In this document: piece after piece, positions 1-40,716 of the stretch
Layout of the letters: every line of letters starts with the position of its first letter
Numbering within the stretch: position 1 is the stretch's first letter
IMG/VR virus record: IMGVR_UViG_3300037851_000243
Span: 1-40,716 of that record
Source of the DNA: a virus
Direction: 5' to 3' (one strand)
Length of the DNA stretch: 40,716 nucleotides
Position numbers and translations under genes: made by a program
The notes under the pieces: generated by a model
Told to the model about the DNA's origin: nothing
Seen by the model: only the letters and a program-made list of their open reading frames with translations
The model's database searches: none

Positions 1-300
1 TGAGCGTCGGCGGCGACCTCTACCTCAGCCACACTCCAATCACCGCCCTGCCTGACGGACTGAGCGTCGGCGGCGGCCTCTACCTCAGCCACACTCCAAT
101 CACCGCCCTGCCTGACGGTCTGAGCGTCGGCGGCGCCCTCTACCTCGGCCACACCCTAATCACCGCCCTGCCTGACGGACTGTGCGTCGGCGGCGACCTC
201 GACCTCAGCGACACCGCGATCACTGCCCTGCCTGACGGTCTGAGCGTCGGCGGCAACCTCGACCTCAGCGACACCCCAATCACCGCCCTGCCTGAGAATT
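1..300 (+). repeat. 60-bp in-frame tandem repeat array (5 units)
   Basis: Units 1-60, 61-120, 121-180, 181-240 and 241-300 all begin tgagcgtcggcgg (or tgtgcgtcggcgg) and differ at only a few positions. Confidence 0.95.
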
Positions 301-611
301 GCAGATTGGGCGGGAAGCGTATCTCCGACGCGCCCATCATCCCAGACATTGATCGGGCAGTGTATGCAGCGGCCTCGCAGCCGGGCGCGCTGGATATGAG
401 GAGATGGCATTGCGGCACCTCACACTGCCGTGCCGGCTGGATCGTGACGCTGGCCGGAGAAGCAGGCAAGCGGCTGGAGATTGACACGGGCTCCACGGCC
501 AATGCAGCGATGCTGATTTATGCTGCGAGTGCGCCGGGCCAGCCGATCCCCGACTTTTATTGTGATAACGAGGCGGCTCTGGCCAACATGAAGGCCAGAG
601 CAGGCCTGTAG
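1..611 (+). CDS. C-terminal part of an LRR-like (20-aa repeat) protein. The 5' end is outside the window, or is the ORF opening at 40174 if the molecule is circular.
   Basis: The frame is open from the window edge (in phase with nt 3) to TAG 609-611. It has five in-frame 60-bp repeats encoding LPDGLSVGGxLxLxxTxITA, then a tail of about 110 aa containing RRWHCGTSHCRAGW. It is near-identical to 39538-40148. Confidence 0.8.
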   Translation, partial: SVGGDLYLSHTPITALPDGLSVGGGLYLSHTPITALPDGLSVGGALYLGHTLITALPDGLCVGGDLDLSDTAITALPDGLSVGGNLDLSDTPITALPENCRLGGKRISDAPIIPDIDRAVYAAASQPGALDMRRWHCGTSHCRAGWIVTLAGEAGKRLEIDTGSTANAAMLIYAASAPGQPIPDFYCDNEAALANMKARAGL

Positions 612-636
612 CGATTGAACAGGAAAGGCCACGAAG

Positions 637-675
637 ATGACAGATGCGCCGATTGATCTAGCTGCCGTCCGGTGA
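637..675 (+). pseudogene. Degenerate remnant of the start of a further repeat-protein gene copy
   Basis: 612-642 (gcgattgaacaggaaaggccacgaagatgaca) parallels the inter-copy spacer plus start at 40149-40179 (acgattgaacaggaaaggccgcgaacatgaca). Here the ATG at 637 opens only a 12-codon ORF (MTDAPIDLAAVR*). Confidence 0.4.
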
Positions 676-928
676 GCCACAAAGAGCTTGCATAAGGCCG
701 CAAATCAAATTATGGCCAAAACAGGACGACTTACGCGAGCCCACCTTCGTAACCGTAGCTGAGTGCTCGCTATAGGCCCAGGCCAGCAAAAAACCATGCT
801 GGCCCCATCGGGGGCCTACGTCAAAAATCAGAATGAAACCATCTCTGATCGCATCAGAAGATGCCTGATACGCCATCATCGGCGTTCCGCCCTTAACAAT
901 CGCTGAACCGCCCGCGCAAGGAGGAATC

Positions 929-1960
929 ATGCACACGTTGTCGAAACGACTCGCCCGCGTCATGGTGTGCGGGGCGCTCGTTGCCGCGCTTATCATGGCC
1001 GTGGCTCATGGAGCCGAGCGCGGCACAAAGCTCCACATGCAGGTCGCGTTGATCATCGGTCTGGCCTGCGTCGCGATCGGCGAGTTTCTCGCGTGGCACA
1101 ATGCCGCGAGTGCTTGGCACGAGCGTCGATCTGGTTCGGTCGCGCTGTGGGCGTGCCTCGGCGTGATTTTGAGCGGCGGAACGCTCTACACCAACTTTTC
1201 ATCCGCAGCCGCCAACAACGACTTGAAAACGGGCGTGCAAAAAGCGGCGTTCGTCACACAAGGGGACGTCGACAAGACCGAGGCGATGCTTGAGAAGAAG
1301 GTGTCGAGGCTCGAGGAACGGCTGCGGATGATGCCAGCGCGGACTGCAGAAGCGGCGCGCGCCGCGCAAGACAACGCACGAGCGCATCGCTGGTGGGGCG
1401 TCACGGACGGATGCAAGACAACGAAGGGGCCAGACACGCGCAAATTCTGTTCCGAATACGCTTCGGCTGTGGCTGACGAAAGCATGGCCAAAGACGCTAT
1501 GACCAGGGCGGAAGAGCTTAAAATGGCTCAAGCGGAGTTGGCCACGTTGCGGACCAACCGCGCCGGCACAGGTGCAGCCGTCGTGTCCGACGAGCAGGCC
1601 GGCGTCGCGGTCCTGGCATCTCTCCTCCGTGTCGATGTCCAGGCCGCCCGCCAAACAGACAGCATGATCCTGCCCCTTCTGGTGCAAGCGATGCTCCTGA
1701 TCGGAGGCATCTGCCTCGCGAGCGAAACCTATCGTCACACAGAGCGGCGCCCTTGGGTCAATTGGAGCCGGTTCGCACCACTCGGTCGCAGATTGATCGC
1801 ATGGTGGCGGGATCAAACGCCGGAACAGCAGATCGCAGACGCTGCGCTGCGTCACGGCCGCATTGAAGTCAATCAAACCGTCACGGACGAGCGCGGCGTT
1901 AACGAGCTGTGGGCCAAACTTAATGGCGCCCTCAACCCGCCACGAGAGCGCACGGCATGA
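929..1960 (+). CDS. Hypothetical membrane protein with a central coiled-coil (343 aa)
   Basis: A strong RBS (aaggagg, 918-924) precedes the ATG at 929. There are three hydrophobic segments at the N-terminus, a long charged helical middle and a fourth hydrophobic segment (ILPLLVQAMLLIGGICLA). The stop overlaps the next ATG (ATGA). Confidence 0.75.
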   Translation: MHTLSKRLARVMVCGALVAALIMAVAHGAERGTKLHMQVALIIGLACVAIGEFLAWHNAASAWHERRSGSVALWACLGVILSGGTLYTNFSSAAANNDLKTGVQKAAFVTQGDVDKTEAMLEKKVSRLEERLRMMPARTAEAARAAQDNARAHRWWGVTDGCKTTKGPDTRKFCSEYASAVADESMAKDAMTRAEELKMAQAELATLRTNRAGTGAAVVSDEQAGVAVLASLLRVDVQAARQTDSMILPLLVQAMLLIGGICLASETYRHTERRPWVNWSRFAPLGRRLIAWWRDQTPEQQIADAALRHGRIEVNQTVTDERGVNELWAKLNGALNPPRERTA

Positions 1961-2229
1961 CCGATACGGAGCAGCTCATTCACCAAGTCGCCAGAGAGCT
2001 AGGGATCGAAGGCGTCGCGACGACCGCAGGACCAACACGGGTTGCCGTGTCTTTCACCCGCAAAGACGGGTCGCAAGGAGGATGCAACATCGACGAGGGG
2101 ACGTCGTTCAAGCAAATCCACGACATCCTCGCTGGAGAGGCAAAGTCAGCCTCGAAGGCGAAAGAGGCGAAGGCGAAGGTCATTGCCGCTATGGAGCTGA
2201 AGTTGAAGGCTCTGAAAGATGAACAGTGA
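1957..2229 (+). CDS. Hypothetical small protein (90 aa)
   Basis: ATGA coupling to the upstream gene and coding-like composition. It lies directly upstream of the TerS-like gene. Confidence 0.65.
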   Translation: MTDTEQLIHQVARELGIEGVATTAGPTRVAVSFTRKDGSQGGCNIDEGTSFKQIHDILAGEAKSASKAKEAKAKVIAAMELKLKALKDEQ

Positions 2230-2662
2230 TGCTGCTGTAACAGAAGCGAAACAGCGTCCACACCCGCGCCCACATCTGATGCAGCACGAATTTAAGCCTG
2301 GGCAGTCGGGCAACCCGAAGGGTCGACCACGGGGAGCGCGCAGCAAGCTCTCGGAATTGTTCATCGAAGAGCTGTACCGCGATTTTCAGATCCACGGCGT
2401 CGACGCCATCAAGGAAGTGCGAGAGGTCCGCCCACACGACTATTTGAAGGTCGTTGCGTCGCTGCTGCCGAAGGAACTGAACGTGCGGGCCGACGTTTTG
2501 TCGGAAATGTCAGATGATGAACTTGTCGCGATCCTCGACAACATTCGATGCCTCGTCGCTGCCGGCAGTTTTACGACGATTGGAGACGGAGCTACAGAAG
2601 CGGCGCGATACCAATCGACTCAAGCACTACCAGCCCTACGCGCGACAGAAGGACTTTCATAA
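2219..2662 (+). CDS. Putative terminase small subunit (DUF5681-like)
   Basis: The motif FKPGQSGNPKGRPRGA is typical of small proteins encoded just upstream of TerL in many phages. The call also rests on position. Confidence 0.65.
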   Translation: MNSDAAVTEAKQRPHPRPHLMQHEFKPGQSGNPKGRPRGARSKLSELFIEELYRDFQIHGVDAIKEVREVRPHDYLKVVASLLPKELNVRADVLSEMSDDELVAILDNIRCLVAAGSFTTIGDGATEAARYQSTQALPALRATEGLS

Positions 2663-3233
2663 CGCCGGACGCGACCACAACGAACGTTTGTTTATGGCTG
2701 GCAATCAGCTCGGCAAAACCTGGGCTGGCGGGTTTGAGACCGCGATGCATCTGACGGGGCGGTATCCCGACTGGTGGCAGGGACAGACGTTCGATAAACC
2801 GCCGATCATCTGGGCGTCTGGCGTGACGGGTGAGAGCACGCGCGACAACCCGCAGCGGGTTCTAGTGGGCAACCCACCGCGCGAAGATGAGTGGGGAACC
2901 GGGACCATCCCACGGGACTGCCTCATAGATCATGATCGGGCGATCGGTGTGCCGAACCTGCTCGACAACGTGGTCGTTCGTCACGGCGGCGGCGGCGATG
3001 TGCAAGCGGGTGAAGCGCTGTGCTATTTCAAGGCCTATGAAAAAGGCCGCGAGAAATGGCAGGGGCCAACAATCGATGCTGTGTGGTTCGATGAAGAACC
3101 GCCGCTGCCCATTTACACCGAGGGCCTGACGCGTACGAATCGCGGACAGCGCTCGCAATTTGTGTACATCACGTTTACGCCGCTCCTGGGGATGTCAGAG
3201 GTTGTGTCGCTCTTCCTATTGAGACCGCAATGA
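2514..3233 (+). CDS. terL: Terminase large subunit, ATPase domain portion (frame-interrupted at the 3' end)
   Basis: Walker A-like MAGNQLGKTW and Walker B-like AVWFDEEP are present. The ORF ends ...TFTPLLGMSEVVSLFLLRPQ* where homologues continue. The start is uncertain because ATG 2514 overlaps the TerS-like ORF by 149 nt. Confidence 0.85.
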   Translation: MMNLSRSSTTFDASSLPAVLRRLETELQKRRDTNRLKHYQPYARQKDFHNAGRDHNERLFMAGNQLGKTWAGGFETAMHLTGRYPDWWQGQTFDKPPIIWASGVTGESTRDNPQRVLVGNPPREDEWGTGTIPRDCLIDHDRAIGVPNLLDNVVVRHGGGGDVQAGEALCYFKAYEKGREKWQGPTIDAVWFDEEPPLPIYTEGLTRTNRGQRSQFVYITFTPLLGMSEVVSLFLLRPQ

Positions 3234-3961
3234 GCCGTCACGTGACGTCGATGACAATCGACGACGTATCCCACTACAGCGAAGCGGAGCGCGCGCAAAT
3301 CGTCGCCAGCTATCCCGCTCACGAACGTGAGGCGCGCGCGCGTGGAATCCCGACGATGGGGAGCGGGCGTATCTTTCCGATCGCTGAATCGGACCTGATC
3401 GTGCCAGCGCGGGAGGTCCCGAAGCATTGGCCGCAAATCAACGGTCTCGATTTTGGTTGGGATCATCCGTTCGCCGCAGTCAACATCGCATGGGATCGCG
3501 ACGCCGATTGTGTGTTCGTGTGTAAAACTTACCGCCGGCGGGAAGAGACGCCAGTGTTGCACGCGGCATCAATCAAACCCTGGGGTGAGTGGATTCCCTG
3601 CGCGTGGCCGCATGACGGCCTGCAACACGATAAAGGCTCCGGGCAGCAGCTGAGGGAGATCTATAAATCACACGGGCTGAATATGTTGTCCGAGCGCGCT
3701 GAACATGCCGAAGGCGGTAACGGTGTCGAAGCCGGGTTGATGGAGATGCTGGAACGGATGCAAACAGGGCGCTTCAAGGTCTTCGCCGATCTCGTGGAAT
3801 GGCTGGAGGAATTTCGCCTCTATCACCGCCTTAACGGCAAAGTCGTGAAGGAACGTGACGATCTCATGAGCGCCACGCGATACGCGGTCATGATGTTGCG
3901 CGAGGCTTGCGTGAAGCCGAGCAGCAAGCCGCTGGCGTACGGTGGGAAGCGATACGCCTGA
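3230..3961 (+). CDS. terL: Terminase large subunit, nuclease domain portion
   Basis: Contains ...MTIDDVSHYSEAERAQIVASYPAHEREARARGIPTMGSGRIFP..., GLDFGWDHP and ERDDLMSATRY (RNaseH-like nuclease acidic residues). It lies in the -1 frame relative to 2514-3233, with an ATGA junction. Confidence 0.85.
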   Translation: MSRHVTSMTIDDVSHYSEAERAQIVASYPAHEREARARGIPTMGSGRIFPIAESDLIVPAREVPKHWPQINGLDFGWDHPFAAVNIAWDRDADCVFVCKTYRRREETPVLHAASIKPWGEWIPCAWPHDGLQHDKGSGQQLREIYKSHGLNMLSERAEHAEGGNGVEAGLMEMLERMQTGRFKVFADLVEWLEEFRLYHRLNGKVVKERDDLMSATRYAVMMLREACVKPSSKPLAYGGKRYA

Positions 3962-25392: not shown

Positions 25393-26457
25393 TCATTGAA
25401 CCGACAACCGCTTCGGCAATTGGACCACTTCCGCAGCACCCCGCATGCTTTCAACACTGGGTTTCGCATAGGTGTCGCGAGTAATCTGCGGATTGGCGTG
25501 ACCAAGAAAGCGCGCGATTTTCTCCATTGGCACATCGCTCGCCTCAAGCCAGCTTGCTGCAGTATGGCGTAAAGTGTGCGGCGTCACGCCGTCTATGCCG
25601 GCACGACGGCACGCCGCGCGAAAGCCAACGCGGATGCACCTGACAGATTCACCGTTCCATTCGATGACGTGATCAGTCAGACGGCCTTCGCGGGCCTCTG
25701 CCAAAGCAGCGCGCGCCCAATCGTTGATATACGAGATTTTGGCGCGACCCTTGCGGACCGCCTTTGAAAGCGGGTTTATCTGTTCCTCGCGATTGAGGTC
25801 GATGCAACGCAATTCGAGGTCAACGCGATCCCAGGTCAACTCAAGCAGCGCGGTTGATCGTGCACCGGTCGCAATGGCCAAGATGATGAACAAGCGCATG
25901 TGCGGCATAACGCAGGCGTCGATGAGGCGTTGCGCTTCGTCGGGTGTCAAAATCCGCGATTTTGGCAGGGGTTTCGCAGGCAACCAGACATAGGGCGTCT
26001 CAGACAGCGCGCGGCGCTTGCAGGCCCAATTGAGGCATGCACGCAAGTATATCAGTTCAGTCCAGGCTGTACCGGCGGACCGGCCGACGTCGAGACGTTG
26101 TTGCGTGTAGTACCGGCACAGATCGGCCGTGATAGAGGCGGGACGCAACGGTCCAAAGACCGTTGCCAGTGCTTTCCAGTGATGATGCAACGATGCGACC
26201 TGCTTACCGTCCAGCGCCCGGTCCTTCACGTATTCACGCCAGATATCGGAGACGGTGAGGGACGCAACAGCTTTCAAGGTGTTGCGTTCGGCGATCCAGG
26301 CATTGAAGAGCGCCCGCGCTTGCGTCTCAGAGGTGGCGGGGCCGAGTCTGTTCCGATGCCGGGCTCCGGTGTCGTCGCGCCATGTCGCGACCGCTTGCCC
26401 TTTGAGAGAGCCAAGCGTGTACGGTCCAACTTGGTAATGCCGCCATCTTTTTCCCAT
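25393..26457 (-). CDS. int: Tyrosine integrase (354 aa)
   Basis: The C-terminal catalytic region has ATGARSTALLELTW (Arg), HTLRHTAASW (H-x-x-R) and ...LGHANPQITRDTYAK (His...Tyr). It is adjacent to the tRNA fragment and to xis. Confidence 0.93.
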   Translation of the reverse strand: MGKRWRHYQVGPYTLGSLKGQAVATWRDDTGARHRNRLGPATSETQARALFNAWIAERNTLKAVASLTVSDIWREYVKDRALDGKQVASLHHHWKALATVFGPLRPASITADLCRYYTQQRLDVGRSAGTAWTELIYLRACLNWACKRRALSETPYVWLPAKPLPKSRILTPDEAQRLIDACVMPHMRLFIILAIATGARSTALLELTWDRVDLELRCIDLNREEQINPLSKAVRKGRAKISYINDWARAALAEAREGRLTDHVIEWNGESVRCIRVGFRAACRRAGIDGVTPHTLRHTAASWLEASDVPMEKIARFLGHANPQITRDTYAKPSVESMRGAAEVVQLPKRLSVQ

Positions 26458-29695: not shown

Positions 29696-29702
29696 TCAAA
29701 AA

Positions 29703-29718
29703 ATGAGACAAATCTCAC
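29703..29718. promoter_or_regulatory. Operator OL2 (ATGAGACAAATCTCAC)
   Basis: A second copy of the same 16-mer with one mismatch, 30 bp from OL1. Confidence 0.55.
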
Positions 29719-29889
29719 TCAATAAAAATAGCGCCACGAACTCAAGATGTTGCTTGAATTGCGTCTGTGGAGAACAGGTGATGGAAGCGGTGTCGCTCTG
29801 GCCTTGGGCCGTCGTTCTGATGTTGCTTGGCGCCAATGTCAGTCGCGCGTTGCGACTCTATGCAAAAATGGAGTGGGCCGTGGCTGAGT

Positions 29890-30158
29890 TCACCGGCCAC
29901 CGCGCTTGATAAACATAACCGGCGCGACCCAAGCAATGCGGACGTCTTCGATATCGCGATTGGCCGGATTGTAGCTTCGGAGGTTGAATCGACCTTTTTG
30001 CGTGCTTTTCGAAAGAAATTTGACGTATCGTTCGCCGGTGTCGGTCTCGACGATGCAATCCAGACCGATCAGATTGTGCGCCGTGCGCCCCGCGTGCTTA
30101 ACGCCCACAAGGATATCCCCGCTCCGATACACGGGGACCATGCTGTCACCGCGAACTT
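29890..30158 (-). pseudogene. cI-like repressor, C-terminal fragment (S24 peptidase domain from GDSM onward)
   Basis: The minus frame reads QVR-GDSMVPVYRSGDILVGVKHAGR...GERYVKFLSK...VAPVMFIKRGGR*. It contains the Ser (GDSM) and Lys (VKFL) of LexA/cI-type S24 peptidases. There is no own start, and it abuts IRL of the IS. Confidence 0.85.
30151..30158. repeat. Target-site duplication, left copy (GCGAACTT)
   Basis: The identical 8-mer directly flanks the other IS end at 32822-32829. Confidence 0.85.
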
Positions 30159-30181
30159 GGCGATTATCCGGTTGACAAACC
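30159..30181 (+). repeat. IRL (ggcgattatccggttgacaaacc)
   Basis: It is the reverse complement of 32799-32821 except for one base. Confidence 0.85.
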
Positions 30182-30229
30182 CAACATGATTGGGTAGTTT
30201 CTCTCTCAACACTGAGAGGGAATTGTGTC

Positions 30230-31189
30230 GTGTCCGTCCTGAATGCTCCCCACTTCCACGATGAAGCCGCCGCCTTCGCGAAGCTCGAAGCCGTGCTTTG
30301 GCAGAACGGCCCCGTGTGCCCGAAGTGCGGAAACAAGGAACGCATCTACGTTCTCGACGGCGTGCGCTCCAAGCCAAGCAGGAAGAACCCGGAAGGTGTG
30401 GTCCGCCACGGCTTGAAGAAGTGCGGCAAGTGCCGCCAGCAATTCACCGCGCGCGTCGGTACGGTATTCGAGTCCAGCCATATCCCGCTGCAAAAGTGGT
30501 TCCAGGCCGTGCACCTGCTCTGCTGTTCCAAAAAGGGTATCAGCAGCCACCAGCTTCATCGCGTTCTTGAGATCACCTACGAGGCGGCGTGGTTCATGAG
30601 CCACCGCATTCGTGAGGCCATGCGTTCCGGTTCTCTGGCGCCGATCGGCGGCGCTGGTAGCAGCGGCGTTGTCGAGGCTGACGAGACTTTCATCGGCCGC
30701 AAGAAGGGCGTGCCGATACGTCGCGGCGGCGCGCACAAGAACGTCGTTCTCGGCCTTGTGGAGCGCGGCGGCGAGGTTCGCACGGCCCACATCGACAACA
30801 CCAAGGCCGAGACGATCCTGCCGATCGTCAACGAGAACATTGCCAAAGAAGCGCACGTCATGACCGACGACGGCGCGACCTACTACAAGAAGCTCGGCGA
30901 CTTCGCCGGCCACGACGCTGTGAACCATTCTGCCGAAGAGTATGTGCGTCACGAGGACGGCAAGCCCGTCATCAGCACGAACACGATCGAGGGCTACTTC
31001 AGCATCTTCAAGCGCGGCATGAAGGGCGTCTACCAGCACTGTTCCGAGAAGCATCTGCACCGCTACTTGGCGGAGTTCGATTTCCGCTACAACAACCGAT
31101 CCGCCCTTGGCGTCGAAGACTGTGAAAGAACCGTAAACGCGATCAAGGGCGTCGCCGGAAAGCGGCTCACGTATCGGTCGCCTGATTGA
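30230..31189 (+). CDS. IS1595-family (ISXO2-like) DDE transposase (319 aa)
   Basis: An N-terminal zinc ribbon (CPKCG...CGKCRQQFTARVGTVFE), then ADETFIG, MTDDGATYY and NTIEGYFSIFKRGMKGVYQH. The start is GTG, with gagaggg about 10 nt upstream. Confidence 0.9.
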   Translation: MSVLNAPHFHDEAAAFAKLEAVLWQNGPVCPKCGNKERIYVLDGVRSKPSRKNPEGVVRHGLKKCGKCRQQFTARVGTVFESSHIPLQKWFQAVHLLCCSKKGISSHQLHRVLEITYEAAWFMSHRIREAMRSGSLAPIGGAGSSGVVEADETFIGRKKGVPIRRGGAHKNVVLGLVERGGEVRTAHIDNTKAETILPIVNENIAKEAHVMTDDGATYYKKLGDFAGHDAVNHSAEEYVRHEDGKPVISTNTIEGYFSIFKRGMKGVYQHCSEKHLHRYLAEFDFRYNNRSALGVEDCERTVNAIKGVAGKRLTYRSPD

Positions 31190-31255
31190 CGCGCCCGCGC
31201 AGAAAAAGCGCCCTTGACTCTTGCTTATTTTGATGAATTCGCTCATGATTCGCGG

Positions 31256-32116
31256 ATGAGCAAGAGAGTAAAGATCAGGATCAGAGGCAGTGGGCACGAC
31301 ACCGACGCGCCCACTGTCTACGACATGTCTGATCAGTTGAAGGACTACTTCGATCTGCTTGAATCCGTGGAGCAGACGTTGGCCGATGACGGTCAGAGCG
31401 CCATCGAATGGCGCGTTGTGCATGCCGTTACTGCAAGCCCGATCACTTTCACCGTGCAGGCGTTTCCAAAGATATTTGCAGTGAACGTAGACGCGCGGGC
31501 CGACCATGTTATTACGAGTGCACTTCGTGGCGTCAGAGAGCTTATTCAAAATCCGTCCCGGCCGAGCAATTTTACCGACCAAACGCTTGGCCTAGCGCAG
31601 CGGCTGTATGATCGCGTCACCAACGGACTGGATCGCACAGAGATCGAAGTTGAGGGCCAAGAGGCAGAGCAAATTGCCATAACGCCGACTATCGCTCGTG
31701 TAGCAGCGCAGAACATCCGGACTGTGCTTCAGCCTGTCGTGAAACCCTACAAGGAAATCGGCGGAGTTGAGGGGCACATCCAAAATGTTGGGCAGGACGG
31801 GTATCGCCGCCGCTTCTTGCTGATTCGTAGCAGGATGACAGGTGATGAAATCAAGTGCTTCGTGAGCGGAGACGCCGAAAAGCAGTTAGCCAAATGCGAA
31901 ATTGCGGACGTGTGGCGACGTGCGCGGGTTGAAGTTTTCGGATTGATCCACTTCAAAGGACCACAGCGCATTACCCAAGTCGATGCGCAGCGCCTTCGGT
32001 TCTTCTACGCTGAGAGCGAATTGCCAGCCGTTGACGACATATTGGACCCCGACTTCACTGGCGGTCTGCGCACTGAAGACTATCTAGATTGGCTCCGCAA
32101 TGGCCGCCTCTCCTAA
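31256..32116 (+). CDS. IS passenger gene A: protein of unknown function (286 aa)
   Basis: I chose ATG 31256 (MSKRVKIRIRGSG...); the track start at 31214 is a TTG. I recognise no motif. The stop lies 17 nt inside the PIN gene. Confidence 0.7.
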   Translation: MSKRVKIRIRGSGHDTDAPTVYDMSDQLKDYFDLLESVEQTLADDGQSAIEWRVVHAVTASPITFTVQAFPKIFAVNVDARADHVITSALRGVRELIQNPSRPSNFTDQTLGLAQRLYDRVTNGLDRTEIEVEGQEAEQIAITPTIARVAAQNIRTVLQPVVKPYKEIGGVEGHIQNVGQDGYRRRFLLIRSRMTGDEIKCFVSGDAEKQLAKCEIADVWRRARVEVFGLIHFKGPQRITQVDAQRLRFFYAESELPAVDDILDPDFTGGLRTEDYLDWLRNGRLS

Positions 32117-32603
32117 GCGTGTACTGTGGGACGCGTGCACGTGGATCGCGCTGATTCAGCAGGAAAAGAACATCATAGCGGACGGCATTGATCGCTATAC
32201 ACGGTGTCGAACCGTCATAGACTTGGCCGCAAAAGGCAAGATAGAGATTGTATGCTCGGCGCTCTGCCTCGCTGAGGTGTGCAAGAATAAGGACCTTCGC
32301 GACCAAGATCCTTCACACATTGCTCGTTTCTTCGAGCACGAATACTTGCTGGCCATCGCTCTAGGAAGGGAGATAGCAGAAACCGCGCGTGGCCTGATGA
32401 TGGCAGGGATACCCAAACTGAAGCCCGCCGACGCTTGTCATGTTGCGTCGGCACTTGAGGTTCCAGGCGTAACCGAGATGCACACCTTCGACGATGATCT
32501 CATCGCCCAAAGTGGAAAACTTCAGAAGCGTGACGGTGCATCTCTGAAGATTTGTTACCCTGACGCCGGCGGTCCTGTGCCGCCGCTGCTGAAGGGGGCA
32601 TGA
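32100..32603 (+). CDS. IS passenger gene B: PIN-domain (VapC-like) nuclease (167 aa)
   Basis: The acidic quartet appears in typical contexts: VLWDAC, CLAEV, KPADACHVASA and HTFDDDL. Size and spacing fit a PIN fold. Confidence 0.8.
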   Translation: MAASPKRVLWDACTWIALIQQEKNIIADGIDRYTRCRTVIDLAAKGKIEIVCSALCLAEVCKNKDLRDQDPSHIARFFEHEYLLAIALGREIAETARGLMMAGIPKLKPADACHVASALEVPGVTEMHTFDDDLIAQSGKLQKRDGASLKICYPDAGGPVPPLLKGA

Positions 32604-32604
32604 A

Positions 32605-32775
32605 ATGGTAAAACTCAAGACGCAGTGCCAGAAATTTGTTGAGGCAGCCAAGTCATCAGGTGCGAGCGAGAACGCCGCTGATTTCGATAGGCTGTTGGGT
32701 GGGATCGCAAAGGCTCCGCCACCCGAGACGGTTCAAGAGCGCAAGGCCCCGAAAGCAAAAAAGCCCGCCAAGTAG
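32605..32775 (+). CDS. IS passenger ORF C: small Lys/Ala/Pro-rich protein (56 aa, below the track cutoff)
   Basis: Translated by hand as MVKLKTQCQKFVEAAKSSGASENAADFDRLLGGIAKAPPPETVQERKAPKAKKPAK*. It starts 1 nt after the PIN stop, and its stop lies in the terminator loop. Confidence 0.4.
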   Translation: MVKLKTQCQKFVEAAKSSGASENAADFDRLLGGIAKAPPPETVQERKAPKAKKPAK

Positions 32776-32787
32776 CGGGCTTTTTCT
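32757..32787 (+). terminator. Rho-independent terminator at the end of the passenger operon
   Basis: The sequence is aaaaaagcccgc-caagta-gcgggcttttt. A 7-bp GC stem is followed by a T-run and preceded by an A-run, so it may act in both directions. Confidence 0.75.
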
Positions 32788-32798
32788 TGGCGGGGCGT

Positions 32799-32821
32799 GG
32801 TTTGTCAACCGTATAATCGCC
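32799..32821 (-). repeat. IRR (reverse complement ggcgattatacggttgacaaacc)
   Basis: It pairs with IRL at 30159-30181. Confidence 0.85.
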
Positions 32822-32829
32822 GCGAACTT
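32822..32829. repeat. Target-site duplication, right copy (GCGAACTT)
   Basis: Identical to 30151-30158. Confidence 0.85.
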
Positions 32830-33189
32830 CGAGCGCGATGGCCTCACCGGGAGAAAGCAGAAGTTCAAGCTCACCAAGCCCGTCGTCGATGGGCGTCCAG
32901 CCTTCACCGGCAGCAACGGCCCCTGAGATCGGAATCCGCACGATCCCATCGGCCGTGCCGTCCCGGAGTTCGCGCAGCGTCATCCCAAGTGCCGTTGCAA
33001 CAGCCGCCAATGTCGCATTCCTTGGATCTGATGTTTTCTCAAGGAGATCATAGATCAAGCGTTCATTTTTTCCAACCGCACGCGCCAGAGCCTTGGGGTT
33101 CAACCCCCTCAGCTCCATGGCCGCTTTCAAGCGCTGTTTCCAACCTGGCTCCATGGAGACTGCATAACGAAATGTGGAAAACCAGTCTC

Positions 33190-33205
33190 GTGAGTTTGAT
33201 CTCAT
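33190..33205. promoter_or_regulatory. Operator OR2 (GTGAGTTTGATCTCAT, imperfect)
   Basis: The half-sites GTGAG and CTCAT are spaced as in the other operators. It lies 22 bp from OR1 and overlaps the ATG at 33205. Confidence 0.45.
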
Positions 33206-33233
33206 TGACGGGTGAGACGTATCTCACTATAGT
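33205..33233 (+). promoter_or_regulatory. PR-like rightward early promoter
   Basis: TTGACG (33205-33210), a 17-nt spacer, then TATAGT (33228-33233). The ATG of the cro-like gene lies 8 nt after the -10 box. Confidence 0.6.
33212..33227. promoter_or_regulatory. Operator OR1 (GTGAGACGTATCTCAC)
   Basis: The same palindrome as OL1 with a different 4-nt centre. It fills the PR-like promoter spacer. Confidence 0.65.
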
Positions 33234-33240
33234 GGACCAC

Positions 33241-33462
33241 ATGACCACTGCGGAAAGATTGCTCGCTGATATCGAGACATTTCTGAAAGCCCACGACATG
33301 TCGGCAACGACGTTTGGGCGGTTGGCTTGCCGCGACCCGCATACGGTCCGGTGGCTTCGCGATGGCAATGGCGTCACATCGTCCCGCATTGATACGTTGC
33401 GTAACTTCATGCGGGATTATCGGCCTTCCCAAAAAAAGGTCGCAGACGTTCACGCCGCTTGA
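33241..33462 (+). CDS. Cro-like small HTH regulator (73 aa)
   Basis: It is divergent from the repressor gene and immediately downstream of the PR-like promoter. The HTH candidate is MSATTFGRLACRDPHTVRWLRDGNGVT. Confidence 0.65.
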   Translation: MTTAERLLADIETFLKAHDMSATTFGRLACRDPHTVRWLRDGNGVTSSRIDTLRNFMRDYRPSQKKVADVHAA

Positions 33463-39332: not shown

Positions 39333-39428
39333 TGTGCAAATGATCTGCACCATATTTGACAGCGCGTCAACTATGTGCTTTGTACCGTCAACAGCGAGAC
39401 GAAATTTTACCCAACTGAGGCCGCGAAC

Positions 39429-40148
39429 ATGACACAATACAAAATAATTGACGGCATGCTGACCCCGCCTGACGGTCTCAGTGTCGGCGGCAACCTCGAC
39501 CTCAGAGGCACCGCAATCACCGCCCTGCCTGACGGACTGAGCGTCGGCGGCGACCTCTACCTCAGCCACACTCCAATCACCGCCCTGCCTGACGGACTGA
39601 GCGTCGGCGGCGGCCTCTACCTCAGCCACACTCCAATCACCGCCCTGCCTGACGGTCTGAGCGTCGGCGGCGCCCTCTACCTCGGCCACACCCTAATCAC
39701 CGCCCTGCCTGACGGACTGTGCGTCGGCGGCGACCTCGACCTCAGCGACACCGCGATCACTGCCCTGCCTGACGGTCTGAGCGTCGGCGGCAACCTCGAC
39801 CTCAGCGACACCCCAATCACCGCCCTGCCTGAGAATTGCAGATTGGGCGGGAAGCGTATCTCCGACGCGCCCATCATCCCAGACATTGATCGGGCAGTGT
39901 ATGCAGCGGCCTCGCAGCCGGGCGCGCTGGATATGAGGAGATGGCATTGCGGCACCTCACACTGCCGTGCCGGCTGGATCGTGACGCTGGCCGGAGAAGC
40001 AGGTAAGCGGCTGGAGATTGACACGGGCTCCACGGCCAACGCTGCGATGCTGATTTATGCTGCGAGTGCGCCGGGCCAGCCGATCCCCGACTTTTATTGT
40101 GATAACGAGGCGGCTCTGGCCGACATGAAAACCAGAGCAGGGCGGTAA
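39429..40148 (+). CDS. LRR-like repeat protein, copy A (239 aa; 6 full repeats, 1 degenerate repeat and a C-terminal domain)
   Basis: gagg precedes ATG 39429 (MTQYKIIDGML...). The 20-aa units are PDGLSVGGxLxLxxTxITAL. The C-terminal domain contains RRWHCGTSHCRAGW and FYCDNEAALADMK. Confidence 0.8.
   Translation: MTQYKIIDGMLTPPDGLSVGGNLDLRGTAITALPDGLSVGGDLYLSHTPITALPDGLSVGGGLYLSHTPITALPDGLSVGGALYLGHTLITALPDGLCVGGDLDLSDTAITALPDGLSVGGNLDLSDTPITALPENCRLGGKRISDAPIIPDIDRAVYAAASQPGALDMRRWHCGTSHCRAGWIVTLAGEAGKRLEIDTGSTANAAMLIYAASAPGQPIPDFYCDNEAALADMKTRAGR
39478..39837 (+). repeat. 60-bp in-frame tandem repeat array (6 units)
   Basis: The units start at 39478, 39538, 39598, 39658, 39718 and 39778. 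Confidence 0.95.
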
Positions 40149-40173: not shown

Positions 40174-40716
40174 ATGACACAATACAAAATAATTGACGGC
40201 ATGCTGACCCTACCTGACGGTCTGAGCGTCGGCGGCGCCCTCTACCTCGGCCACACCCTAATCACCGCCCTGCCTGACGGACTGTGCGTCGGCGGCGACC
40301 TCGACCTCAGCGACACCGCGATCACTGCCCTGCCTGACGGTCTGAGCGTCGGCGGCGACCTCTACCTCAGCGGCACCGCAATCACCGCCCTGCCTGACGG
40401 TTTGAGCGTCGGCGGCGACCTCGACCTCTACGGCACCTCAATCACTGCTCTACCTGACGGTTTGAGCGTCGGCGGCGACCTCTACCTCAGCCACACTCCA
40501 ATCACCGCCCTGCCTGACGGACTGAGCGTCGGCGGCGGCCTCTACCTCAGCCACACTCCAATCACCGCCCTGCCTGACGGTCTGAGCGTCGGCGGCGCCC
40601 TCTACCTCGGCCACACCCTAATCACCGCCCTGCCTGACGGACTGTGCGTCGGCGGCGACCTCGACCTCAGCGACACCGCGATCACTGCCCTGCCTGACGG
40701 TCTGAGCGTCGGCGGC
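40174..40716 (+). CDS. LRR-like repeat protein, copy B, 5' part (open at the window end; 299 aa if joined to 1-611)
   Basis: aggaaagg precedes ATG 40174, and the N-terminus (MTQYKIIDGML) is the same as in copy A. There are at least 8 full repeats with no stop before the window end. The gene is absent from the ORF track because it is unterminated. Confidence 0.8.
   Translation, partial: MTQYKIIDGMLTLPDGLSVGGALYLGHTLITALPDGLCVGGDLDLSDTAITALPDGLSVGGDLYLSGTAITALPDGLSVGGDLDLYGTSITALPDGLSVGGDLYLSHTPITALPDGLSVGGGLYLSHTPITALPDGLSVGGALYLGHTLITALPDGLCVGGDLDLSDTAITALPDGLSVGG
40223..40716 (+). repeat. 60-bp in-frame tandem repeat array (8 full units plus a partial one)
   Basis: The units start at 40223, 40283 and so on to 40703. 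Units from 40463 onward are identical to 1-254. Confidence 0.95.

Follow-up and report, generated by a model that had tools for sequence, protein, structure and literature searches.

Has a temperate phage lost its repressor to a mobile element? The question is raised by IMG/VR virus record IMGVR_UViG_3300037851_000243, all 40,716 nucleotides of which were analysed and are called the window below. On its minus strand, the two parts of a gene resembling the cI and LexA repressors are separated by a segment of 2663 bp (30159-32821), which a preliminary description had taken for an insertion sequence (IS) of the IS1595 family. We read the sequence 29700-33400 again and recomputed its features. They make it very probable that a transporter IS (tIS) inserted into a cI/LexA-type repressor gene and split it with an 8-bp target-site duplication, leaving the phage without a functional maintenance repressor. 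The features that bear most directly on this conclusion are the following.

30151-30158: left copy of the target-site duplication, GCGAACTT (direct-repeat search, spacing 2671)
32822-32829: right copy of the target-site duplication, GCGAACTT (direct-repeat search)
30159-30181, plus strand: left inverted repeat (IRL), GGCGATTATCCGGTTGACAAACC (repeat search, 96% complementary to the right one)
32799-32821, minus strand: right inverted repeat (IRR), reverse complement GGCGATTATACGGTTGACAAACC (repeat search)
29890-30150, minus strand: C-terminal repressor fragment, Gly112 to stop, with Ser114 of the GDSM motif and Lys155 (Peptidase_S24, E 1.6e-11)
32822-33154, minus strand: N-terminal repressor fragment, Met1 to Arg111 in the numbering of a 197-amino-acid protein (HTH_3 and HTH_26 matches)
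32615-32821, minus strand: read-through tail encoded by the IS, 66-67 non-native codons, with the stop codon at 32615-32617 (list of open reading frames)
32746-32796: bidirectional intrinsic terminator close to the inner edge of IRR, formed by a GC-rich hairpin that has a T-run on either strand (RNA folding)

The two 23-bp inverted repeats (IRs) are identical at 22 of 23 positions and form the best inverted repeat of the region. Their pattern occurs at just two sites in the 40.7-kb window, and 100 shuffles gave no match. Strictly, the directly repeated stretch is 10 nucleotides long (CCGCGAACTT) because the IS ends in CC. Judged by its related elements, an 8-bp duplication with IRs starting in GG is the consistent reading, and the product of excision is unchanged whichever boundary, 8 or 10 nucleotides, is taken. 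Recomputation reproduced every coordinate first given for the IRs and the duplication, as well as the length of 2663 bp. The claim of an 8-bp duplication also holds, with GCGAACTT flanking both ends and duplications of the same length at sister elements described below.

In silico removal of 2671 bp yields an unbroken minus-strand open reading frame (ORF) of 214 codons, reading ...ALEVRGDSMVPV... and ...GEAIALEVRGDSMVPVYRSGD... in the restored protein. A Pfam search of this protein finds HTH_3 (PF01381), HTH_26 and Peptidase_S24 (PF00717), and among PHROGs it matches the ‘transcriptional repressor’ phrog_4 (E 8e-23). All the hallmarks of a cI/LexA-type S24 repressor are present, i.e. an N-terminal helix-turn-helix (HTH), a C-terminal S24 domain, the Ser/Lys dyad and an Ala-Gly site, and the restored gene is identified as such; operator binding and RecA-stimulated autocleavage are its predicted features. 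The HTH belongs to the N-terminal fragment, as does the linker, in which VAAGEG provides the Ala82-Gly83 cleavage motif, and the split falls between Arg111 and Gly112, just ahead of the Ser114 nucleophile.

Among 5.8 billion proteins, the search found 74 related to the restored repressor, the best of them 62-66% identical. All except the window’s own fragment are single proteins running across the junction, mostly 197-200 amino acids (aa) long. Fifteen intact homologues of 185-232 aa align to the restored protein without a gap at the junction, where their consensus reads ALEVRGDSMAPVYRNGD, and all 24 of the 24 invariant columns are kept, including Ser114, Lys155 and the Gly78/Gly83/Trp86 region around VAAGEG. 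This gapless alignment, with every invariant residue in place, supports the view that the two fragments were formerly one gene. The longest ORF for the N-terminal fragment would begin at 33205. Because the homologues start at the MEPGWKQ position, the true repressor is probably 197 aa long, starting at 33154, and the 214 codons represent the maximal ORF; the repressor of 214 codons proposed at the outset thus stands as an uninterrupted ORF with HTH and S24 domains, with its length likely to be shorter. The gene of the N-terminal fragment has been called as a 179-aa protein (P0006) in five contigs.

The surroundings of the gene are those of a phage immunity region. The window encodes portal, scaffold, virion and tail-fibre proteins, a NinB-like protein, ERF and an integrase, and by this gene content it represents a temperate phage. 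It is far from cultured phages, with 33% amino-acid identity for the portal and at most 33% for the repressor. Three features matter for the decision between lysis and lysogeny.

25393-26457, minus strand: tyrosine integrase (gene annotation)
33205-33233, plus strand: PR-like promoter, TTGACG-17-TATAGT (promoter scan, 10 of 12 matches)
33241-33462, plus strand: cro-like gene, 73 aa, divergent from the repressor (called in contig L002)

Repressor, promoter and cro-like gene are recognised by their arrangement as an immunity switch, and the divergent layout is the same as at intact homologues. In L043/L044 and L045, a single gene encodes the homologue, of 197 or 199 aa, and a cro-like gene of about 78 aa lies divergently beside it. 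Recombination genes follow the repressor, in a layout as in the window, and the 2.6-kb insert is missing. The search for an uninterrupted allele in relatives was therefore successful in that intact homologues exist, and unsuccessful for this particular phage, for which the best one has 62-66% identity.

What the interrupted gene can still produce is determined by the right end of the element. The terminal GGCGAT of the IS again codes for Gly-Asp, so that the fusion keeps the native residues up to 113 and first departs from them with Ser114 to Tyr. The insertion cuts the catalytic and dimerisation domain, with Ser114 and Lys155, off from the HTH and linker. In folding, the terminator hairpin, which is legible in the sequence itself, reaches -32.2 kcal/mol (z -3.7) for the plus strand; for the minus strand the value is -33.7 kcal/mol (z -5.1). 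It lies about 10-65 nucleotides inside the right end, so that a repressor transcript meets it before the in-frame stop. Repressor mRNA would thus probably stop at the IS terminator ahead of any stop codon. With the transcript ending upstream of the stop at 32615, the message would be non-stop and the N-terminal fragment would be tagged for degradation by the transfer-messenger RNA (tmRNA) pathway. Any N-terminal product that remained would be unable to dimerise. We infer that the fragment, even if produced, would be comparable to the inactive product left by RecA-dependent cleavage of cI/LexA proteins. The fusion of the HTH to IS-encoded residues up to 32615, as previously envisaged, exists as an ORF, and its transcript probably ends earlier. 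IS genes run antisense to the repressor and towards its 5' part, as had been described, with transposase and passengers on the plus strand and the repressor on the minus strand; the terminator would shield the 5' part of the repressor from their transcription. A simple terminator scan missed 32746-32796 although it is the strongest hairpin with a T-run in the region, which makes the negatives of that scan unreliable.

In the sequence of events that we propose, a tIS of the IS1595 family would have transposed into the repressor gene of a temperate phage of about 37.8 kb, enlarging it to about 40.46 kb with the element and the duplication. The resulting phage would behave as a cI-null, clear-plaque type, with lytic growth and no stable lysogeny. 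It would stay sensitive to the immunity of an intact relative, because the operator/promoter region 33205-33233 is untouched. Recovery in circular form would also be in line with the suggested clear-plaque, lytic phenotype. The first 254 bases of the window are repeated at its end, and the independent contig L002 spans the IS, the window end and the sequence up to window position 466; together they support a circular or concatemeric genome of 40,462 bp.

The phage could still be temperate if the truncated HTH-linker protein, or a second repressor that escaped recognition, maintained a weak lysogeny not inducible by the SOS response; the insertion would then have altered regulation without abolishing it, an option that the preliminary description had also listed. 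Residues 1-113, which comprise the HTH and linker, are undamaged and still have the promoter region of the gene, the integrase is intact, and the IS-bearing genome recurs unchanged in at least four assemblies, all of which would suit such a phage. It is nevertheless an unlikely one. The IS terminator probably ends the transcript short of a stop codon, favouring tmRNA-mediated degradation, and the window showed no further S24 repressor, although not every ORF was searched for one. In LexA and cI repressors dimerisation is provided by the C-terminal domain, and the N-terminal product of RecA-stimulated cleavage is the inactive form.

Several observations speak against a repressor-null, lytic phage and temper our preference for it. 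An HTH-only fragment can keep weak operator binding at high concentration and so might exert partial, non-inducible repression. The IS-bearing form is found unchanged in several samples and must be viable, be it as a lytic phage, in a carrier state or as a prophage. Since the best intact homologue is only 62-66% identical, the ancestral state of the gene is reconstructed rather than observed. The role of the terminator rests on folding, as the simple scan did not list it, and the 254-bp overlap lies inside 60-bp tandem repeats, which is a caveat to circularity.

The physical reality of the insertion in the preferred, repressor-null phage is documented by its recurrence. It is present with 100% identity in at least four assemblies. 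In JGI 3300043260 both junctions are on L046, over 12.3 kb without a mismatch. In JGI 3300037310 they are on L047 and L002, and in Logan SRR12687606 on L048 and L003, in both cases 100% identical. A further Logan contig, L001 from SRR12687664, consists of exactly the 2663-bp element with no flank. In 3300037310, L047 extends 127 nucleotides into the IS and L002 begins with the first IS base, so that the two overlap by the first 127 IS bases. By the logic of de Bruijn graphs, the flankless L001 and the overlap of L047 and L002 indicate that the ends of the IS are attached to more than one flanking sequence. We infer from this that the IS is multicopy in the community, as would be expected if the host contained a donor copy and the IS had been active recently.

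This multicopy nature also gives rise to the suspicion that a host IS was threaded into the phage contig during assembly. The IS is indeed a repeat in the communities, exists as the stand-alone L001, and breaks contigs at or inside its sequence. However, mis-assembly does not yield a perfect 8-bp duplication at the IR ends together with in-frame restoration of a gene, and both junctions recur 100% identical from different assemblers and samples (JGI and Logan). This rules out an assembly chimera, and makes an artefact of this kind extremely improbable. Practically no credence is given to the alternative that the preliminary description itself named as refuting its reading, in which the repressor would ordinarily be encoded as two genes and the 2.6-kb segment would be a conserved moron of the immunity region and no mobile element, as all 70 or more homologues are single proteins across the junction, related phage-like contigs carry one intact gene for 197 or 199 aa without the segment, and the segment shares its ends with bacterial elements that have target duplications and also occurs as a free-standing contig.

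With a perfect duplication and no decay in either repressor fragment, the insertion is supported as recent, in agreement with the initial assessment. The contig breaks in 3300037310 were considered as a possible empty site and rejected: the shared k-mer is inside the IS and points to a second IS copy with another left flank. The empty site, searched as the exact 24-mer TGTCACCGCGAACTTCGAGCGCGA, gave no hit in viral_contigs and metagenome_contigs, a weak negative as these collections do not contain the source samples. A 36-nucleotide probe for the left IS end likewise had no hit in metagenome_contigs, and the IR probe missed the window itself in viral_contigs, confirming that the source samples are not there. 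The protein search, which did include the source assemblies, revealed no intact allele above 66% identity.

The element itself is more complex than the IS1595 insertion first reported. Its family was correctly named, but it is not a simple IS, and three passenger or backbone ORFs had been missed. Between IRL and IRR it contains, in this order, the transposase, a gene for a 286-aa protein with an oligonucleotide/oligosaccharide-binding (OB) fold, a VapC-like PIN gene, a 56-aa ORF (p56) and the bidirectional terminator.

30230-31189, plus strand: IS1595-family transposase, 319 aa, GTG start (profile searches)
31256-32116, plus strand: passenger gene 1, 286 aa, with a C-terminal OB fold (longest ORF from 31214)
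32100-32603, plus strand: passenger gene 2, predicted VapC-like PIN protein, 167 aa (start overlaps gene 1 by 17 nucleotides)
32605-32775, plus strand: p56, 56-aa ORF (no family match)

The IS1595 family is defined by a C-terminal DDE_Tnp_IS1595 domain, an N-terminal zinc finger and 8-bp duplications, and the N-terminal Zn_Tnp_IS1595 domain is present in all its groups except IS1016 (PMC8101967). All three defining features are found in the element. With 190 bits against the NCBIfam model NF033547 (cut-off 75), the transposase upholds the earlier family assignment; it also matches DDE_Tnp_IS1595 (PF12762, E 2.5e-34, 151 of 153 profile positions) and Zn_ribbon_IS1595 (PF12760, E 2e-8). Its catalytic D (EADET), D (MTDD) and E (NTIEGYFSIFK) are conserved with relatives, as are the zinc-ribbon cysteines CPKC...CGKC. 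On these characters it is assigned to the IS1595 family. A tIS consists of one transposase, IRs and a target duplication with passenger genes, and is reportedly confined to the IS1595 and IS66 families (10.1101/2021.05.26.445724). The element is classed as a tIS because three additional ORFs lie inside its IRs. Transposition activity is predicted from the perfect duplication, the intact transposase and the existence of the IS as a stand-alone repeat contig.

Within the family, the element shows GGCGATTAT ends, the motif NTIEGYFSIFK (E...K at +7) and AEFDFR. A fit to the ISNwi1 group, suggested by the GGCGATTAT ends and a DDE-K/E-R motif, is taken as a lead; in the ISfinder table this group has IRs of about GGnnnTTAT, DDEK plus E-R(+4) and optional passengers (‘ISNwi1+’).

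An exact scan for the IRs in one genome per species detected 28 loci in Hyphomicrobiaceae, Rhodomicrobium, Mesorhizobium and metagenome-assembled genomes (MAGs) of Alphaproteobacteria. At 4 of the 28, a complete element has the same IRs and a perfect 8-bp duplication.

L018: sister element of 2802 bp, duplication CCAAAGAA
L021: sister element of 3473 bp, duplication CCATAAAA
L028: sister element of 2753 bp, duplication TTTTTAAT
L042: sister element of 2632 bp, duplication TTTTCTTT

Transposases of these four are 61-72% identical to that of the window, and keep the zinc-ribbon cysteines and D, D, E, save for one substitution in L021. As they are 2.6-3.5 kb long, far above the length of an IS without cargo, and differ from one another in their additional genes, they too are regarded as tISs. 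The phage host would be an alphaproteobacterium, probably a member of Hyphomicrobiales. Searched as a whole, the element had no match in the phage collection, and in the plasmid collection only the transposase part was matched (66-71%).

Two arrangements of the same IRs were encountered in the course of the scans. In L014 (IMGVR_UViG_3300027728_000956), a viral and distantly related contig, positions 1944-1998 form a 55-bp mini-element of two IRs 9 nucleotides apart, GGCGATTATCCGGTTGACAAACC-CAGCACTTG-GGTTTGTCAACCGGATAATCGCC, which resembles a miniature inverted-repeat transposable element and is without a clean 8-bp duplication. In several Mesorhizobium loci, IRs stand back to back in opposite orientations 8 bp apart (L018 1184-1237, L021 2434-2487, L024 2239-2291, L035 30-83). 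Their spacing of about one duplication length points to insertions side by side or one within another, or to preferred insertion beside existing ends.

The cargo distinguishes this element from the other complete elements examined, none of which has the 286-aa/PIN pair. About 190 alphaproteobacterial homologues of the 286-aa protein were found, all of about 285 aa and none with a Pfam domain. Its AlphaFold2 (AF2) model (pLDDT 84.8) ends in a five-stranded barrel, which Foldseek matches locally to the anticodon-binding OB domain of lysyl-tRNA synthetase (LysRS, E 5e-4) and also to uncharacterised phage proteins. The PIN protein of the window is below the PF01850 cut-off (19.6 vs 23.6 bits), and 28 of 28 aligned members of its family match PF01850. 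In the family alignment, the acidic positions E49/E59, D111 and D131 never vary and D11 hardly does. The AF2 model of the PIN protein (pLDDT 88) matches VapC20 in Foldseek (E 3.6e-5, TMt 0.70) and other VapC structures at about 0.7, and some sources name its relatives VapC. Passenger gene 2 is accordingly modelled as a VapC-like PIN fold with four conserved acidic residues. A PDB sequence search with the 286-aa profile and the PIN protein gave nothing meaningful, so that only the comparison of folds was of help.

The 286-aa/PIN pair is also found without a transposase: a genomic island has it next to an integrase and a SMODS gene (L004-L006), in L007-L011 its neighbours are housekeeping genes including rpmI-rplT-pheS, and in L013 (80% nucleotide identity) it lies 3' of an ORF identified by eye from its translation as ammonium-transporter-like. 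Outside IS contexts, the 286-aa gene always adjoins the PIN gene. Because the pair occurs without the IS in several chromosomal settings, it is interpreted as an autonomous module captured by the IS. The IS would have acquired it earlier, and it would have no part in the gene disruption itself.

We regard the pair as a candidate toxin-antitoxin (TA) or defence pair. Like VapBC, it has a PIN/VapC fold with four acidic residues, encoded by the second gene of a tightly coupled operon on mobile DNA. Unlike in VapBC, the gene upstream encodes a multi-domain protein of 286 aa with an OB fold, which is not similar to AbrB, RHH or PhD antitoxins, and no antitoxin family match was found for it. The pair may therefore work like a TA system that is not a canonical VapBC. 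PADLOC returned no match for any IS-encoded protein, and the cargo is thus not a catalogued defence system. NCBIfam and PHROGs, which matched the transposase, had no match for the three passenger ORFs.

Changes of cargo were noticed in two other elements. A related tIS in L012 (positions 1-3389, Logan SRR14126291), with 84% nucleotide identity, keeps the 286-aa gene and has a 303-aa protein in place of PIN; it ends with the same p56 ORF and IRR as the window element. By this comparison, L012 suggests effector swapping behind a constant 286-aa partner. An assignment of the 303-aa protein to HEPN, for which WRNHIAHGR with its R-x4-H motif is the sole indication and no Pfam match was obtained, was set aside and serves as a lead. 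In L028 (307-3059, Alphaproteobacteria MAG MFD04944.bin.1.319), the cargo comprises a 220-aa HTH_66-like and a 154-aa PIN_10/DUF5615 protein, so that a second PIN-type gene pair is found within this lineage of ISs.

In contrast to this differing cargo, p56 recurs. ORFs like it are located near the right end of eight elements (L012, L015, L018, L020, L022, L028, L032 and L033), and 24 representative homologues are about 55-108 aa long, with the motif KFIEAARELG-x-[DE]E-x-AFD...IAKAPPP in ORFs of about 55-65 aa. This distribution makes p56 look like a conserved backbone gene of an IS subgroup. L013, a locus without the IS, has a degenerate trace of p56 after its PIN gene.

It is conceivable, and on present evidence rather doubtful, that ISNwi1-like elements are a cargo-swapping platform for RNase-toxin modules, that the 286-aa/PIN pair is a new TA or anti-phage system, and that the tIS turned the phage into a lytic vehicle spreading the module. 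The 286-aa/PIN pair here, HTH_66 with PIN_10 in L028 and the 303-aa replacement in L012 are in favour of the platform.

Compared with known systems, the element resembles an IS1595 tIS in its single Zn-ribbon/DDE transposase, IRs starting with GG, 8-bp duplication, passengers inside the IRs and a size like that of its sisters; it differs by its cargo, and its location in a phage is unusual. A conserved 56-aa ORF and a bidirectional terminator at the right end are not known to have been described for IS1595 tISs. The repressor is like lambda cI and LexA in the HTH, the Ala-Gly motif VAAGEG, the Ser-Lys dyad (GDSM ... K155) and the divergent cro-like gene, and unlike them in being interrupted.

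Conversion of a temperate phage by an IS has precedents. Lactobacillus casei phage phiFSW became the virulent phiFSV through an insertion element (PMC10893365), and insertions of IS2 and IS5 occur in mutants of lambda and Mu; ISs are reported to be rare in wild-type phage genomes (PMC3091744). In those cases, as here, a host IS lands in a phage and alters the control of lysis and lysogeny. They concern laboratory or industrial isolates with a phenotype, whereas the present case is known from metagenome assemblies only, and it differs further in that the repressor coding sequence was struck beside the active-site Ser by an IS with cargo. Such conversions are well known in laboratory and industrial phages and rarely documented in uncultured ones.

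The event is thus a new instance of a classical type of mutation, and the element a new member of the IS1595 tISs. The OB-fold/PIN cargo, p56, the end-proximal bidirectional terminator and the persistence of a disrupted phage across samples go beyond the textbook case. A natural IS conversion of a temperate phage to a probable repressor-null form has been caught in metagenomes, stable across samples. It indicates that tISs can carry toxin-like cargo into phage genomes, a possible route for TA- or defence-like modules into virions, and it marks the 286-aa/PIN module and p56 as candidates for functional study. For annotation, it is a warning that a regulator in a viral contig that looks ‘HTH-only’ and adjoins an IS may be the remnant of a disrupted cI gene.

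Scans of the window with Rfam and for tRNAs gave nothing. Two tandem paralogous genes, encoding 257 and 299 aa, occupy 39375-40148 and 40174-40716 continuing into 1-611, the second across the circular junction. Each contains five to nine copies of a 20-aa unit resembling leucine-rich repeats (LRRs), LPDGLSVGGDLYLSHTPITA, with a 60-bp period and 87-90% matches. The LRR-like repeats extend over 39463-39832, 40208-40716 and 1-295 and contain the 254-bp terminal overlap; they have only a weak match to LRR_4, and their copy number may be mis-assembled. LRR proteins are unusual in phages.

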